A stretch of 64,000 nucleotides of DNA from an uncultured delta proteobacterium (GTDB lineage Bacteria > Myxococcota_A > Polyangia > Polyangiales > B10-G4). Below are positions 50,384-62,427 of this stretch, piece by piece (within the stretch, counting starts at the first letter, position 1; each line of letters begins with the position of its first letter). The notes beneath the pieces are model-generated. The model did not search any database. It worked only from the letters and a program-made list of their open reading frames with translations, and was not told the origin of the DNA. A program made the position numbers and the translations under genes. Where the stretch lies: NCBI GenBank assembly GCA_963727445.1, contig CAVSGI010000005.1, forward strand, positions 128,001 to 192,000. Direction: 5' to 3'.

Positions 50384-51457
50384 CTAGTGAGAGCGCGACA
50401 CGGCCGCCGGCGACGAGCTGGACGCGAGTGCTGTTGGGTGGGGCGCGTCCCGCTCGGTCCAGAAGCGCGACAGCTCCGGCCAGAGGCGCTTCTTCGCGCC
50501 TCGGCTCACGACGGCGCCGACGTGTCCGCCGGGCAGGTGCAGGTGGCGCTTGTCCTCGCTCCGGACCTTGTCGAGGATCGCGGCGGCGCCTTCCCAGGGG
50601 ACGATGTAGTCGTCGGCGAAGGTGACGGCGAGGAGTGGGCAGCGGACGTCTTCGAGATGCACGGCGCGGCCGGCGATGGAGAGCGTGCCGTGCCACAGCT
50701 GGTCGTCGCGGTAGAGGTCCTCGATGTAGCGCTTGTAGAAGGCGCCGGGGAGGCCGACGTTGTCGTTGCCCCAGGTCTCGAGGGCGAGGAAGCCGTCGAG
50801 GGATTCGTCGGTCCAGGCGCGGTCGAGGACGTGCACCGCCTTCGACAGGCTGAGCGTGGGACGCAGGAGGTGAAAGGAGCCCTGGAGGATCTGCCAGGGG
50901 ACGATGCCGGTCGCGCTCACCAGCGTGCGGACGTCGAAGCGCTTCGAGCGCGTCCAATTGGTGAGCACCGAGTCGTCGGCGAAGCGGATGGGCGCCGCGA
51001 GCTGAACCAGCGACGCGACGTGCTCGGGGTGCTTGGCGGCGTAGATGGCGGTGAAGATGCCACCCATGCAGTAGCCGAGGAGATGTGCGGTTTCGGTCCC
51101 AGACTCGCGCGTCGCCTTTCGGATGGCGCGGCCGAGATAGCGCTCGGCGAAGTCGTCGAGCTCGAGGTAGCGATCCTCGGGGCCGGGCGTGCCCCAGTCG
51201 ATGCAGTAGACGTCGTGGCCCTGCTCGACGAGCCACTCGGCGAAGCTCTTGCCCGGCATCAGATCCAGCACGTAGTGCCGGTTGATCAGCGACGGCACCA
51301 TCACGATCGGCGTTTGATGCACGCGCCCCGCCTCGGGCGAGGGGCGGTAGCGGAGCAGCCGCCATTTGTTCTCGCGGTGGACGACGTCCGCCGGGGTCAT
51401 CCCGACCTCAGGCATCGGTCGCTTCAGGCGCGACAGGAAAGGGATCAGACCACGCAT
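50384..51457 (-). CDS. phaC: Class III-type PHA synthase-like protein (PhaC paralog A)
   Basis: TPADVV, PSLINRHYVLDL, IDWG, GYCMGG lipase box, DDYIVP (Asp), GGHVG (His); 357 aa. Confidence 0.8.
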   Translation of the reverse strand: MRGLIPFLSRLKRPMPEVGMTPADVVHRENKWRLLRYRPSPEAGRVHQTPIVMVPSLINRHYVLDLMPGKSFAEWLVEQGHDVYCIDWGTPGPEDRYLELDDFAERYLGRAIRKATRESGTETAHLLGYCMGGIFTAIYAAKHPEHVASLVQLAAPIRFADDSVLTNWTRSKRFDVRTLVSATGIVPWQILQGSFHLLRPTLSLSKAVHVLDRAWTDESLDGFLALETWGNDNVGLPGAFYKRYIEDLYRDDQLWHGTLSIAGRAVHLEDVRCPLLAVTFADDYIVPWEGAAAILDKVRSEDKRHLHLPGGHVGAVVSRGAKKRLWPELSRFWTERDAPHPTALASSSSPAAVSRSH

Positions 51458-53165
51458 CAGTACAGCGCCCCGAGGAGCTCGCCGAAGCGCTCGTAGACCT
51501 TCTTGCGCTTCACCTTGAGGGTGGGCGTGAGCATGCCGTTTTCGACCGTGAGGGGCTCGTCGACCACGGCGAACTTCTTGATGGTCTCGTAGCGGGCGAG
51601 GTCGGCGTTGATCGCGTCGATCCGGCGCGAGAGCAGCGCCTCGCGGGCCTCCGCGCGGCCGCCGCCGTTCACCCCCTGGGCGTCGAGGTGGGCGTCGATG
51701 GCGGCCTTGTTCGGCCACACGCCGGCGACGAGGTACTTCTGGCCGTCGCCGTAGAGCACCACGTGCTCGATGAAGGGATCGTCGCGGAAGCGGAGCTCGA
51801 TGTTCGCCGGCGCGACGTTCTTGCCGCCCGCGGTCACCAGGATGTCCTTCTTGCGATCGACGATCTGCAAAAAGCCATCGTCGGTGAAGCGGCCGATGTC
51901 GCCGGTCTTCAGCCATCCGTCCTCGGTCAGCACCTCGCGGGTCGCCGCCGGGTCCTTGTGGTAGCCGCGGAAGATGCTCTTGCCGCGCGCCAGGATCTCG
52001 CCGTCCTCGGCGAGGCGGATCTCCACGCTCGGCAGCGGCTTGCCCACCGTGTCGAAGCGGAAGGCGTCGGGGCGATTCAGCGTCAGCGTCGGAGACGCCT
52101 CGGTGAGGCCATAGCCTTCGATGATCAGGATGCCCGCGTCGTGGAAGCTCTCCTTCACCTCGCGCTTGAGGCCCGCGCCGCCCGAGAGACAGAAGCGCAT
52201 CCGGCCGCCGGTGACGTCGAGGAGCGCGTCGGTCTTGCCGCCGGCCTTCACCGCGAGCTTCTCCCAGAGCGAGGGCACGCTCATGAAGACGTTGGGCTTC
52301 ACCTGCGGGATCAGGTCCATCACGTGGGCCGGGTCGGTGAGGTAGCTCGTCCAGCCGAGGGCGTTGCCGAAGTGGCCTCGCCGAAGCCGAAGATGTGGCT
52401 CATCGGCAGCCAGAGCAGGTCGATGGCGCCCTCGTCGAGGAGCGGCGCGTTGACCCGCAGCCAATCGGCGCCGTTGACCGCGACGTTTTCGGTGGGTGAG
52501 CGGCACGCCCTTGGGCAGGCCGAGGTGCCGCTGGTGTAGAGCATCAGCCCCGGCTGCTCGAGGGACACGCTGTCCATCGTCCGCTCGAAGGCCGCCGGGT
52601 CCTCCTGGTCGCGCGCCTTGCCAATGGCGATCGCACGGGACCACCCGATCACCTTGCGCTCGATCTCGCTGTACGAGGGGAGGGCGATGCCTTCGCTGCG
52701 GAGCGACTCGGCCGCGCCGGCGACGTCGAGGCCATCGTCGAGCGCCACGATGCGGTTCACGCCTTCGAGCTGCGGCCAGATCGACAGGACGCGCCGGAGC
52801 AGCGCCGGGGTGTCGACGAAGAGGACGCGCGCGTCCGAGTGCTCGACGACGTAGGCGGCCTGCTCCGCGGTGCTCGAGGCGTAGATCGGCACCATCACGC
52901 CGCCGGCGGCCTGGATGCCGAGGGCGGCGCTCATCCACTCCACGCGGTTCGGCGCGAAGATGGCGGCGCGCTCGCCACTCTTCATCTCGCTGGCGACGAA
53001 GAGGGCGGCTTTGCGGATCTGATCGGCGTACGCCCCCCAGGTGATGGCGCGAAAGTCCCCGCCGCCGTCCGGCAGCATGAAGCGCACGCGGGAGCGTCGC
53101 TCTTCGAGGCTGTCGAAGACGGCGCGGGGCGCGATGCGCGGCTCGAGGTAGGGCGTGACGTCCAT
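51457..53165 (-). CDS. Long-chain acyl-CoA synthetase (AMP-forming); three apparent indels at ~52372-52520
   Basis: YTSGT...[37 protein letters not shown]. Confidence 0.85.
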
Positions 53166-53179
53166 GATGGCTGTCCGGT

Positions 53180-60886: not shown

Positions 60887-60887
60887 A

Positions 60888-62427
60888 ATGGCAGACGGAG
60901 GTTTCGGCTGGCTCGCCTGGGCCGCGTTCGGCGCGTATCTGATCGTCACCACGCTCCTGGCGCTTCGCGGGATGCAGAAGACGAAGTCCTTCTCGGGCTT
61001 CGCCCTCGGCAACCGCGACATGGGGCCGGTGCTCGTCGGCATCACCCTGGCCGCCGCCACGGCGTCCAGCGCGACCTTCGTCATCAACCCCGGCTTCGTC
61101 TACGCCTTCGGCCTGTCGCGCGCTGTTGCATTCGGCGTCGCCTCGGCCCTGGGCGTGACGGTCGGGCTCATCGTCATGTAGCAAGGGCTTCCGCCGCCTC
61201 GGCAACGAGAGCCGACGCCCTCACGCTGCCCGCACTGGATCGGCGCCCGCTACGGCCACGACGGGGATGCGCACCTACTTCGCGCTGCTGAACCTCGCCC
61301 TCGCGGTGAGCTTCGTCGTCCTGCTCATCAAGGGCTCGGCGATGGTCATGCAGCACACCCTCGGCACGAGCTACGTGACCGCGCGTGCTCATCATCGTCG
61401 GCTTCGTCTTCAGCTACATCATCATCGGCGGCACCTACGCCCACGCCTACACCAACGCGTTTCAGGGCGCGCTCATGATCGTCGTCGCGCTGGCCATCAT
61501 CGGCAGCGGCGCTCTACCTGCTCTCCGACGGCGTCGGCCCCTTCTTCGAGCGGCCTCGCCGCGCAGGACCCGAACCTCGTCGAGCCGGTGAACGCGACAG
61601 CGGCCCGCTCTTCAGCTCCGCCTGGGACGTCTTCGTCTGCGGCTTCGTGGTGGCCTTCGGCCTCGATCTGTCAGCCGCACATCCTGATGAAGGCGCTCTA
61701 CCTGAAGAGCGACCAGGACCTGAACCGCTACCTCGTGGTGGCCTCGGTGGTCGGTCTGCTCTTCGCGGCGATCCTCGTCGCGGGCCTGTGGGCGCGCGCC
61801 GTCCTCGAGGGCGGCGTGGCCCAGGACGCGGCGATGGCGATCTACATCGGGGAGGCCTTCTCGCCGGCGGCCGGCGTGCTCATCAGCGTGGCCCTGCTCG
61901 CCGCGGGCATGACCACCATGGACGGCATCCTGGTCAGCGCCTCGACCATCGCGGGCAACGACCTGCTCCTCGGCGGCCTCGGCGAGCGCCTGGTCGCGGG
62001 CAAGAGCGACGAAGGAGCGCCAGAAGATGGCGCTGAGGGCGAGCCGCATCATCCTCGTCGTCATGGGCGTGAGCGCGTTCGTCATCGCCCTCGACCCGCC
62101 GCAGCTCGTCGGCCTCTTCGCGCAGATGGGCGTGTACGGCCTGGTCGCCGCGTCGCTGGTGCCGGTCGCCGGTGGGATCTTCTTCGAGAACCTGAACCCG
62201 CGCTTCGTCTTCGCGGCGGCCATCGTCGGCCCGCTGGTGCACTTCGCCCACTACGGCTGGGTGACCCTCGGCAAGGGCGAGATCCTCAACCCGGCCATCC
62301 CCGCGACCGAAGGGATCGCCGCGTCGGTGGTGACGCTGGCGGCGCTGACAGCCCTCGCATCGCTCAAAAAGCCGGGAACTTCTCCGGCCGCGGCGCCTCT
62401 GAGGGTAGAGGCTGGGAGGCGAGATGA
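60888..62427 (+). CDS. Sodium:solute symporter family protein (multiple apparent frameshifts)
   Basis: FALGNRDMG, ATASSATF, GGTYAHAYTNAFQG, QPHIL, AAGMTTMDG across several frames. Confidence 0.75.

Follow-up and report, generated by a model that had tools for sequence, protein, structure and literature searches.

Gene content and architecture of the locus

The stretch analysed here covers 64,000 nt (contig CAVSGI010000005.1, positions 128,001-192,000, assembly GCA_963727445.1; hereafter the window, to whose positions all coordinates below refer unless a contig or locus is named) and carries a divergent gene cluster related to polyhydroxyalkanoate (PHA) storage. Open reading frame (ORF), Pfam and NCBIfam scans recovered every gene listed in a first-pass annotation of this DNA, in the order and orientation given there. 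The minus strand encodes, leftward, lipoprotein 1, a lipoprotein hydrolase, a TIGR04551-family protein (the putative barrel), lipoprotein 2, a mini-PhaE, an acyl-coenzyme A (CoA) ligase and the synthase PhaC(A). The plus strand encodes, rightward, PhaR, a phasin-like protein, a second synthase PhaC(B), a short-chain dehydrogenase/reductase (SDR) and a sodium:solute symporter (SSS). Most of the leftward genes had been described as stop/start coupled; of the eight close co-oriented junctions inspected on the two strands, stop and start overlap in four (hydrolase/barrel, barrel/lipoprotein 2, ligase/PhaC(A) and phasin/PhaC(B)); the other four are gaps of 1-14 nt, and wider gaps separate phaR from the phasin-like gene and PhaC(B) from the SDR. 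The ligase, PhaC(B) and symporter genes are frameshifted in the window. Since they are single ORFs in relatives and 9 of 34 test loci elsewhere in the same genome are likewise split across frames, the three frameshifts are probably assembly errors (indels). Scans of the locus for sigma-70 promoters and terminators returned nothing useful.

Both PhaC(A) (50384..51457, minus strand, 357 aa) and PhaC(B) (59081..60115, plus strand, frame disturbed at ~59940-60000) contain the GYCMG box as well as the two other triad residues, Asp and His (C130/D283/H312 in PhaC(A)). In its size of about 350 aa and its triad, PhaC(A) fits the description of class III PhaC. Scores under the class III model TIGR01836 (cut-off 365 bits) were 256 bits for PhaC(A), 227 bits for the first 292 aa of the truncated PhaC(B) frame, and 198-299 for the PhaC of four relatives, all under the cut-off. 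Cys, Asp and His were kept in 180 of 183 aligned homologues, and comparison of the family profile with solved structures gave PHA synthases as best matches (E-values from 1e-49 to 1e-38), followed by a gap to 1e-7. Similarity to the hydrolase/acyl-CoA synthetase fusion PRK07868 was also found. In a quick tree of 89 rows, taken from a chosen subset of loci, each of the two synthases fell into a supported clade of its own; deep forks of this tree were weak, and no order of events was read from it. The mini-PhaE (53180..53473, minus strand, 97 aa) corresponds only to the C-terminal part of PhaE: it covers positions 230-304 of the 311 of profile PF09712 (23.6 bits, cut-off 25.7) and falls well under the full-length model TIGR01834 (E=2.6e-6, score 27, cut-off 155).

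The acyl-CoA ligase (51457..53165, minus strand, frameshift between ~52371 and 52521) matched PF00501 and PF23562, was unbroken and 562-596 aa long in the three relatives compared, and had FadD11, below cut-off, as its best NCBIfam model. Its nearest relatives are thus long-chain acyl-CoA ligases, and the earlier proposal of a hydroxy acid as substrate is tentative. That the ligase stands in for a PhaA thiolase had also been suggested. The cluster does lack a thiolase, but at least five full-length thiolase matches and MaoC-family (MaoC/PhaJ-like) genes occur elsewhere in the genome, so that the ligase cannot be called a PhaA substitute. A search with a short thiolase signature over limited flanks found a single such gene in 149 fetched stretches (L128:12740-14800), directly after the SDR gene and in a locus devoid of the long ligase. 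The SDR (60140..60886, plus strand, 248 aa) is a FabG/PhaB-like ketoacyl reductase that scored 272 bits with NF006072 (PRK08217; cut-off 298), and it failed the PhaB acetoacetyl-CoA reductase models TIGR01829 (151 against 302) and NF042966 (142 against 436); a close paralogue lies elsewhere in the genome (C23:26584-27348). The symporter gene (60888..~62461, plus strand) contains several frameshifts and matched PF00474 weakly; its homologues are unbroken (497-539 aa) and the match holds at family level only.

PhaR (58146..58676, plus strand, 176 aa) possesses a PHB_acc_N DNA-binding domain and is a clear member of PF07879 (92 bits, cut-off 25), with 93.7 against 109.45 under the stricter TIGR01848; a second PhaR-like regulator is encoded elsewhere in the genome (C6:216288-216779). 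The phasin assignment of the 92-aa product of 58803..59081 (plus strand) was retained because of its size, its position and the PhaR box upstream and not because of its family score, the Phasin_2 match being weak (E=0.013, below cut-off, 2 of 36 members). Its identity as a second mini-PhaE was ruled out, since profile comparison gave a probability of 1.3% and no similarity.

The remaining four leftward genes constitute an envelope module. Lipoprotein 1 (57071..58033, 320 aa, LAGC lipobox) and lipoprotein 2 (53483..54325, 280 aa, LSAC lipobox) are paralogous (hhalign probability 100%, E=3e-60), and the family is fused as three repeats in loci L119-L121. No Pfam or NCBIfam match was found for lipoprotein 1, and no plasmid match for lipoprotein 2. 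The model of lipoprotein 2 (pLDDT 94.6) is all-beta and comes closest to 4fvs (BDI_3050; Z 9.7, root mean square deviation 4.1, 174 residues aligned) and YmcC (2in5; Z 7.3, 4.2, 143 residues), with LolA-like carriers at Z 4 to 5 and a best Foldseek E of 0.027; this predicted likeness to BDI_3050 and YmcC is a lead, not a family assignment. The TIGR04551 protein (54325..55902, 525 aa) exceeds the family cut-off (329.4 bits against 300), carries a signal peptide and a C-terminal aromatic residue, and is a probable outer-membrane beta-barrel. The Atlas linked it at 0.98 to an alginate-export cluster (21% PF13372), PF13372 itself being matched by 2 of 70 barrel family members at E 0.038 or weaker. 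Its single-sequence fold prediction reached a pLDDT of 29.6, and neither the barrel nor the lipoprotein 2 profile had a credible sequence match among solved structures. Pfam and NCBIfam scans gave no match to TonB-dependent transporters or SusD for the barrel or the lipoproteins. Because other TIGR04551 paralogues exist in this genome, one beside radA, and because TIGR04551 is broader than the locus, the latter uses its own branch of the family.

Modelling supports binding between the barrel and lipoprotein 2. Their complex had a score of 0.67, whereas none of three controls exceeded 0.00; the mark used is reached by 116 of 157 solved pairs and 2 of 215 mismatched pairs, a calibration that is rough here, with alignments of our own. 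The runs shared at least 89% of contacts, partner pLDDT was at least 82, and the modelled interface lay on conserved residues (barrel 301-305; lipoprotein 2 C22-G28 and C232). The lipoprotein hydrolase (55899..57065, LTGC lipobox) is a serine alpha/beta-hydrolase (PF00561, 120 bits) with a GHSYG box; C17, S123, D246 and H274 were invariant in 22 rows. Its acidic low-complexity tail is longer here than in most relatives, and a 25-nt palindrome (56037-56061) lies within the region encoding it. Fusions of esterase and barrel occurred in P0005, P0033 (=L115) and P0057, which represent three 50%-identity clusters.

Conservation and regulation of the synthase-envelope linkage

A scan with PhaC(A) confirmed 286 stretches, the best 80 of which were used as loci; these were mostly titled Myxococcota and included Labilithrix luteola DSM 27648. 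Many of them end early at contig ends or at the 10-kb flank. Two are duplicates (L044 and L065, of L021 and L025), which were counted within the 80 loci and the surface-lipase and transporter lists, and left out of the PhaR-box, genome-matrix, triad and thiolase counts and of one transporter count. Of the leftward genes, the ligase was found in 78 loci and mini-PhaE in 73, while the four envelope genes were found in 68 (lipoprotein 2), 65 (barrel), 63 (hydrolase) and 61 (lipoprotein 1). Counts for the rightward genes were 54 for phaR, 36 for PhaC(B), 34 for the phasin-like gene, 21 for the SDR and 4 for the symporter. The last is thus present in the window as annotated, but as an accessory gene. 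Gene order was conserved across Myxococcota, including in L. luteola (AKJ09_01850, 01851, AKU95184, AKU95189), whose phaC(B) (L049:771-1828) is split into ORFs of ~89 and ~250 aa and may be a pseudogene or a sequencing error. One clade carried the module behind PhaC(B), still within the cluster (L023, L027, L066, L074, L075, L080 and L096).

Distribution was further evaluated in 201 genomes sampled across the phylum, among which kin are not independent. The lipoprotein family was found in 45 genomes and a PhaC-like match in 84, all 45 being within the 84. Both genes lay within about 15 kb on one contig in 42 of the 45 and on separate contigs of fragmented assemblies in the other three (coordinates read by eye). 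TIGR04551 matches occurred in 163 of the 201 genomes.

PhaC loci of other families showed a comparable organization, with a phasin-like gene, mini-PhaE, one or two PhaC, a ligase, a small lipoprotein, a barrel-like protein of 470-560 aa, a lipoprotein esterase and a surface lipase. The barrel-like protein and lipoprotein of this second module had no Pfam match and no detectable homology to their window counterparts, as judged from alignments of only 6 rows. The second-module lipoprotein was present in 17 of the 201 genomes, none of them among the 45 with the first module; 16 of the 17 had a PhaC-like match, located within about 15 kb in 13 (coordinates read by eye), and G076 had the lipoprotein alone (L154). 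One member comes from Bradymonadia according to its source record. The ligase position can likewise be filled by two families, a FadD11-like type of ~580 aa, as in the window, or a type of ~500 aa. Judging from these sequences, the envelope module for PhaC loci appears to have been built twice from unrelated parts. The tie between synthase and module can be considered real because all 45 genomes with the lipoprotein family have a PhaC-like match and because the linkage survives rearrangement, ligase exchange and replacement of the whole module.

Several variants were observed among the related loci. In L114-L118, L127 and L150, PhaC is 426-551 aa long, with an N-terminal extension and a GHCIG box, and mini-PhaE is mostly not called as a gene of its own; this extension may take over the part of PhaE, but a Pfam scan of these proteins gave no PhaE match. 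A distant PhaC-like protein near the module (L114:10126-11181, L116:4094, L124:4349) gave a weak signal for the intracellular polyhydroxybutyrate (PHB) depolymerase models PF06850/TIGR01849 and is a candidate mobilising enzyme. Another cassette (L139 and L140) combines mini-PhaE, PhaC and a GNAT acetyltransferase without the envelope module.

A TGCRNYGCA box was found upstream of 56 of 58 phasin-like homologues (0.7 expected), 54 of 78 phaR genes (1.0 expected) and 36 of 85 lipoprotein 1 genes (1.1 expected), the expected counts coming from shuffles that keep single-base content only. According to the passage concerned of PMC6201568, the footprinted PhaR box of Bradyrhizobium diazoefficiens, TGCRNYGCASMA, shares this core. 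A matrix built from the box sites was used to scan the 9.47-Mb genome, and its two best matches were both at the locus: first the box 5' of the phasin-like gene (58705..58721), then that in the divergent phaR/lipoprotein 1 interval (58126..58142). The third-best site (C13, near 505477) lies in a stretch of short broken ORF calls. A degenerate box with one mismatch (58064..58072), ~30 nt 5' of lipoprotein 1, was below the matrix-scan threshold. Over the whole window, the 9-nt box occurred at chance level (8 against 5.9 expected); the box signal is positional. Apparent boxes before phaC(A) (46 of 143) were rejected, these sites being in the last codons of the ligase gene and arising from a conserved K-V-R-R-K stretch. 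Among modules located apart from phaR and phasin, a box was present in four of six (L121, L155, L156 and L163) and absent from two (L119 and L158). Only these six clear stand-alone modules were used: an earlier own-promoter count of 11 of 26 was set aside as unreliable, because spurious short ORF calls hide neighbouring phaR genes.

Direction of transport and competing explanations

Genes accompanying the related loci bear on the direction in which the envelope module may work. The phaC(A) stop coincides in four loci (L039, L049 of L. luteola, L053 and L098) with the start of a gene for a secreted protein that bears a myxosortase-type tail, and the two of these four that were tested scored 281.6 and 280.8 with the extracellular PHB depolymerase model NF050058 (cut-off 150). 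Eighteen loci, mainly of the second module type, encode a Lipase_2 esterase that has an AHSKG box and, in most cases, a myxosortase-type tail; it resembled the PhaZ7 model NF050060 faintly (E=2.6e-4). In 13 loci a major facilitator superfamily (MFS) gene lies close to the core, mostly as the first gene of the module operon, and 12 other genomes have an SSS gene there; no locus was in both lists, and these transporters were classed at family level only. The presence in related loci of surface depolymerase or lipase genes and of inner-membrane transporters, together with the boxes at stand-alone modules, makes uptake the more likely direction.

Our preferred reading, held with a probability of about 0.62, is that the locus takes up esters and supplies their products to PHA granules by way of a CoA ligase. 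The storage part of the first-pass annotation, a PHA-like locus in a member of the Myxococcota, is supported by gene content, triad and synteny. Its further suggestion of an outer-membrane module importing (hydroxy)acids fared well as regards the tie of this module to PhaC and the likelier uptake; the hydroxy-acid identity and an origin from prey are tentative. In the proposed scheme, a surface-anchored depolymerase or lipase, whose gene is present in some relatives only, would cut outside polyester or lipid. The products would cross the TIGR04551 barrel, which is modelled to carry lipoprotein 2 and would probably carry lipoprotein 1 as well, and the lipoprotein esterase at the barrel would cleave them into free (hydroxy)acids. 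Entry of these acids into the cytoplasm would then depend on an SSS or MFS transporter or on trapping by the ligase. As expected at family level, the ligase would form acyl-CoA, 3-hydroxy acids going directly to PhaC and plain fatty acids requiring beta-oxidation and the SDR to yield (R)-3-hydroxyacyl-CoA. PhaC(A) and PhaC(B), whose triads are observed, would polymerise these with mini-PhaE, again as known for the families. The phasin-like protein would coat the granule, and granules would titrate PhaR and free its boxes. Of the two substrate routes, direct salvage of hydroxy acids or PHA is tentative, and uptake of fatty acids via beta-oxidation is slightly less favoured still.

A series of observations weigh against uptake into PHA. 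The surface depolymerase was found in only 4 of the 80 loci; the window has none, the genome shows only two weak PF10503 matches elsewhere, and a search of this genome for the surface lipase gave no match. Most lipoprotein 1 boxes sit in an interval shared with phaR or the phasin-like gene and may serve these genes instead. Neither module was present in 23 of the 84 PhaC-like genomes, where long fusion proteins, GNAT cassettes and some core loci that have a ligase and lack the barrel were among the arrangements seen, and the ligase is kept without the module in L135, L137 and L138. None of the tested PhaC proteins attains the class III cut-off. Class III and IV synthases prefer short monomers, with which the long-chain type of the ligase agrees poorly, a tension that stands. 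Lastly, the nearest lead for the barrel, albeit weak, is the alginate-export family, and the modelled lipoprotein 2 resembles YmcC/GfcB (Z 7.3); both are parts of polymer-export systems.

These last two leads also speak for the main rival, in which PhaC(A) would make an oligoester, a polyester or an acylated lipid that the lipoproteins hand on through the barrel to the surface, the esterase serving to release or edit it. According to the part of PMC8592465 concerned, GfcB binds the barrel GfcD in capsule export; moreover, the envelope module and PhaC(A) share one operon and two PhaC clades could yield two products. However, granules in the cytoplasm are indicated by phasin and PhaR, genes for surface depolymerases or lipases and for solute symporters are in keeping with uptake, the fold scores are moderate, and no ABC, RND or Wzx exporter was found among the 16 recurring neighbour proteins scanned. 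Export is considered unlikely.

Somewhat less probable again is a turnover of the cell's own storage, in which PHA or lipid from lysed siblings or vesicles would be recaptured, or monomers released during mobilisation, as a form of kin recycling. From the PhaR boxes, expression would be expected while the cell itself contains granules, and the linkage is strictly to the synthase and not to predation genes. However, the family name of the extracellular type 1 depolymerases implies action on denatured PHB outside the cell, whatever its origin.

Equally improbable is a neutral-lipid or other ester body for which the PhaC-like proteins would act as acyltransferases or lipases instead of PHA polymerases, PhaR and phasin having been re-used for lipid droplets. 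PhaC scores below cut-off, the similarity to PRK07868 and the long-chain type of the ligase would be in keeping with this. On the other hand, the near-invariant Cys/Asp/His, PHA synthases as the only strong solved structural relatives, the conserved PhaE fragment and the PHB depolymerase coupled to phaC(A) in four loci all point to polyester, and the single wax ester synthase/diacylglycerol acyltransferase (WS/DGAT) of the genome lies away from the locus. Finally, an ordinary PHA cluster with unrelated envelope genes adjacent by descent only is very improbable: many of the 80 loci are close kin and TIGR04551 is widespread regardless of PhaC, but the linkage outlasts inversions and the replacement of ligase or module, and the lipoprotein family was not found without PhaC (45 of 45 genomes) and is lost or kept together with the locus within families.

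Flanking genes, related systems and significance

A broken-looking Y2_Tnp (IS91-like) transposase fragment (49494-50288, minus strand) directly follows phaC(A), and an imperfect short hexamer repeat with TTCGGA-like units lies at ~50340-50380, just past the phaC(A) stop. By reading of the sequence, 46969-48906 (plus strand) encodes a protein with integrin/FG-GAP-like repeats and 48979-49386 (plus strand) a short lipoprotein with tandem TDGATDAT repeats; an ORF at 44713-45273 (plus strand) resembles what we take to be an addiction-module pair read as a single frame. Beyond the symporter, whose 3' end it overlaps, a small membrane protein with a weak bPH_10 match (62424-63041, plus strand) was not found in related loci.

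Comparison of the proposed ester-uptake and storage locus with known systems showed partial likenesses. It shares with the class III PhaEC systems of Allochromatium and cyanobacterial types a PhaC of ~350 aa, the lipase-box Cys/Asp/His triad and a PhaE-related partner gene. It differs in that scores stay below cut-off, PhaE is shortened to 97 aa, PhaC is present as two paralogues, a CoA ligase gene separates phaE from phaC, the cluster lacks a thiolase and an envelope module is present. Likewise, the class IV PhaRC system of Priestia (Bacillus) megaterium combines a short PhaC, a small partner and a nearby reductase and phasin; here, the partner is shorter still, a PHB_acc_N PhaR regulator (PF07879) replaces the PadR-type PhaQ, and a diderm envelope module is added. 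The general logic of Bacteroidota SusC/SusD loci is also recognizable, with a surface hydrolase, an outer-membrane transporter and lipoprotein, a periplasm-side hydrolase, an inner-membrane permease and a regulator. In contrast with these loci, there is no match to a TonB-dependent receptor or SusD, the proposed substrate is an ester and the product would go to a storage polymerase.

The Bradyrhizobium diazoefficiens PhaR-PhaP circuit, as far as the relevant part of PMC6201568 describes it, also relies on a PF07879 regulator and a core box before phasin and phaR; in our case boxes also precede envelope-module operons, and the two best genome sites are both at the locus. Extracellular PHB depolymerases (type 1, NF050058; PhaZ7, NF050060) are represented by the type 1 enzyme in four related loci, where it differs in its myxosortase-type anchor and its coupling to the synthase, and are absent from the window. 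Both the E. coli group 4 capsule proteins GfcB(YmcC)-GfcC-GfcD (PMC8592465, in the section concerned) and AlgE-type barrels provide possible parallels for an all-beta lipoprotein binding an outer-membrane barrel, fold and binding both being predicted here. No sequence homology to them was found, the fold likeness has a Z of 7.3 only, and the recurring neighbours include no polysaccharide genes, an esterase and PHA genes being present instead.

PHA in Myxococcota is already known and not new in itself. Passages of PMC7460792 report Nile-blue-positive granules that grow during predation in Bradymonas sediminis, the relevant part of PMC11821767 reports PHA genes in metagenome-assembled genomes (MAGs) of activated-sludge Myxococcota, and predicted PHA depolymerases have been listed for the phylum in the section concerned of bioRxiv 10.1101/2020.05.08.085522. 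Bradymonas and these MAGs share with the present locus the phylum and PHA granules or genes. Neither such a cluster nor its barrel, lipoproteins or ligase is described in the passages of PMC7460792 and PMC11821767. Searches of the open literature, subscription journals being outside its scope, gave no paper on the cluster and no mention of TIGR04551. The locus represents a genuine and conserved form of PHA storage, apparently not described before, whose synthase is tied to an envelope module of its own.

The passage of PHA oligomers and other ester products through the outer membrane is poorly known, and the locus designates candidate channels of two unrelated kinds, one of which has a modelled lipoprotein partner. 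For a branch of the uncharacterised family TIGR04551 and for two lipoprotein families without Pfam match, it also gives an initial clue to function. It may be speculated, though we hold this rather unlikely, that predatory Myxococcota evolved twice, from unrelated parts, a polyester-utilisation locus, by which PHA from prey or the environment would be digested at the surface, taken up as oligomers through a dedicated non-TonB barrel-lipoprotein complex and re-polymerised through a CoA ligase into granules of the predator, bypassing central metabolism. If true, such a short path, leading from external PHB to newly made PHA with a PhaE of 97 aa, would be relevant to bioplastic recycling and synthase engineering. 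More generally, if the proposed uptake holds, the genomes suggest that many myxobacteria and relatives would break down outside esters, perhaps PHA or lipids of their prey, and store the products as granules of their own. The locus thus offers a testable genetic basis for granule filling in feeding predatory Myxococcota, for which Labilithrix luteola DSM 27648 is available as a cultured strain.

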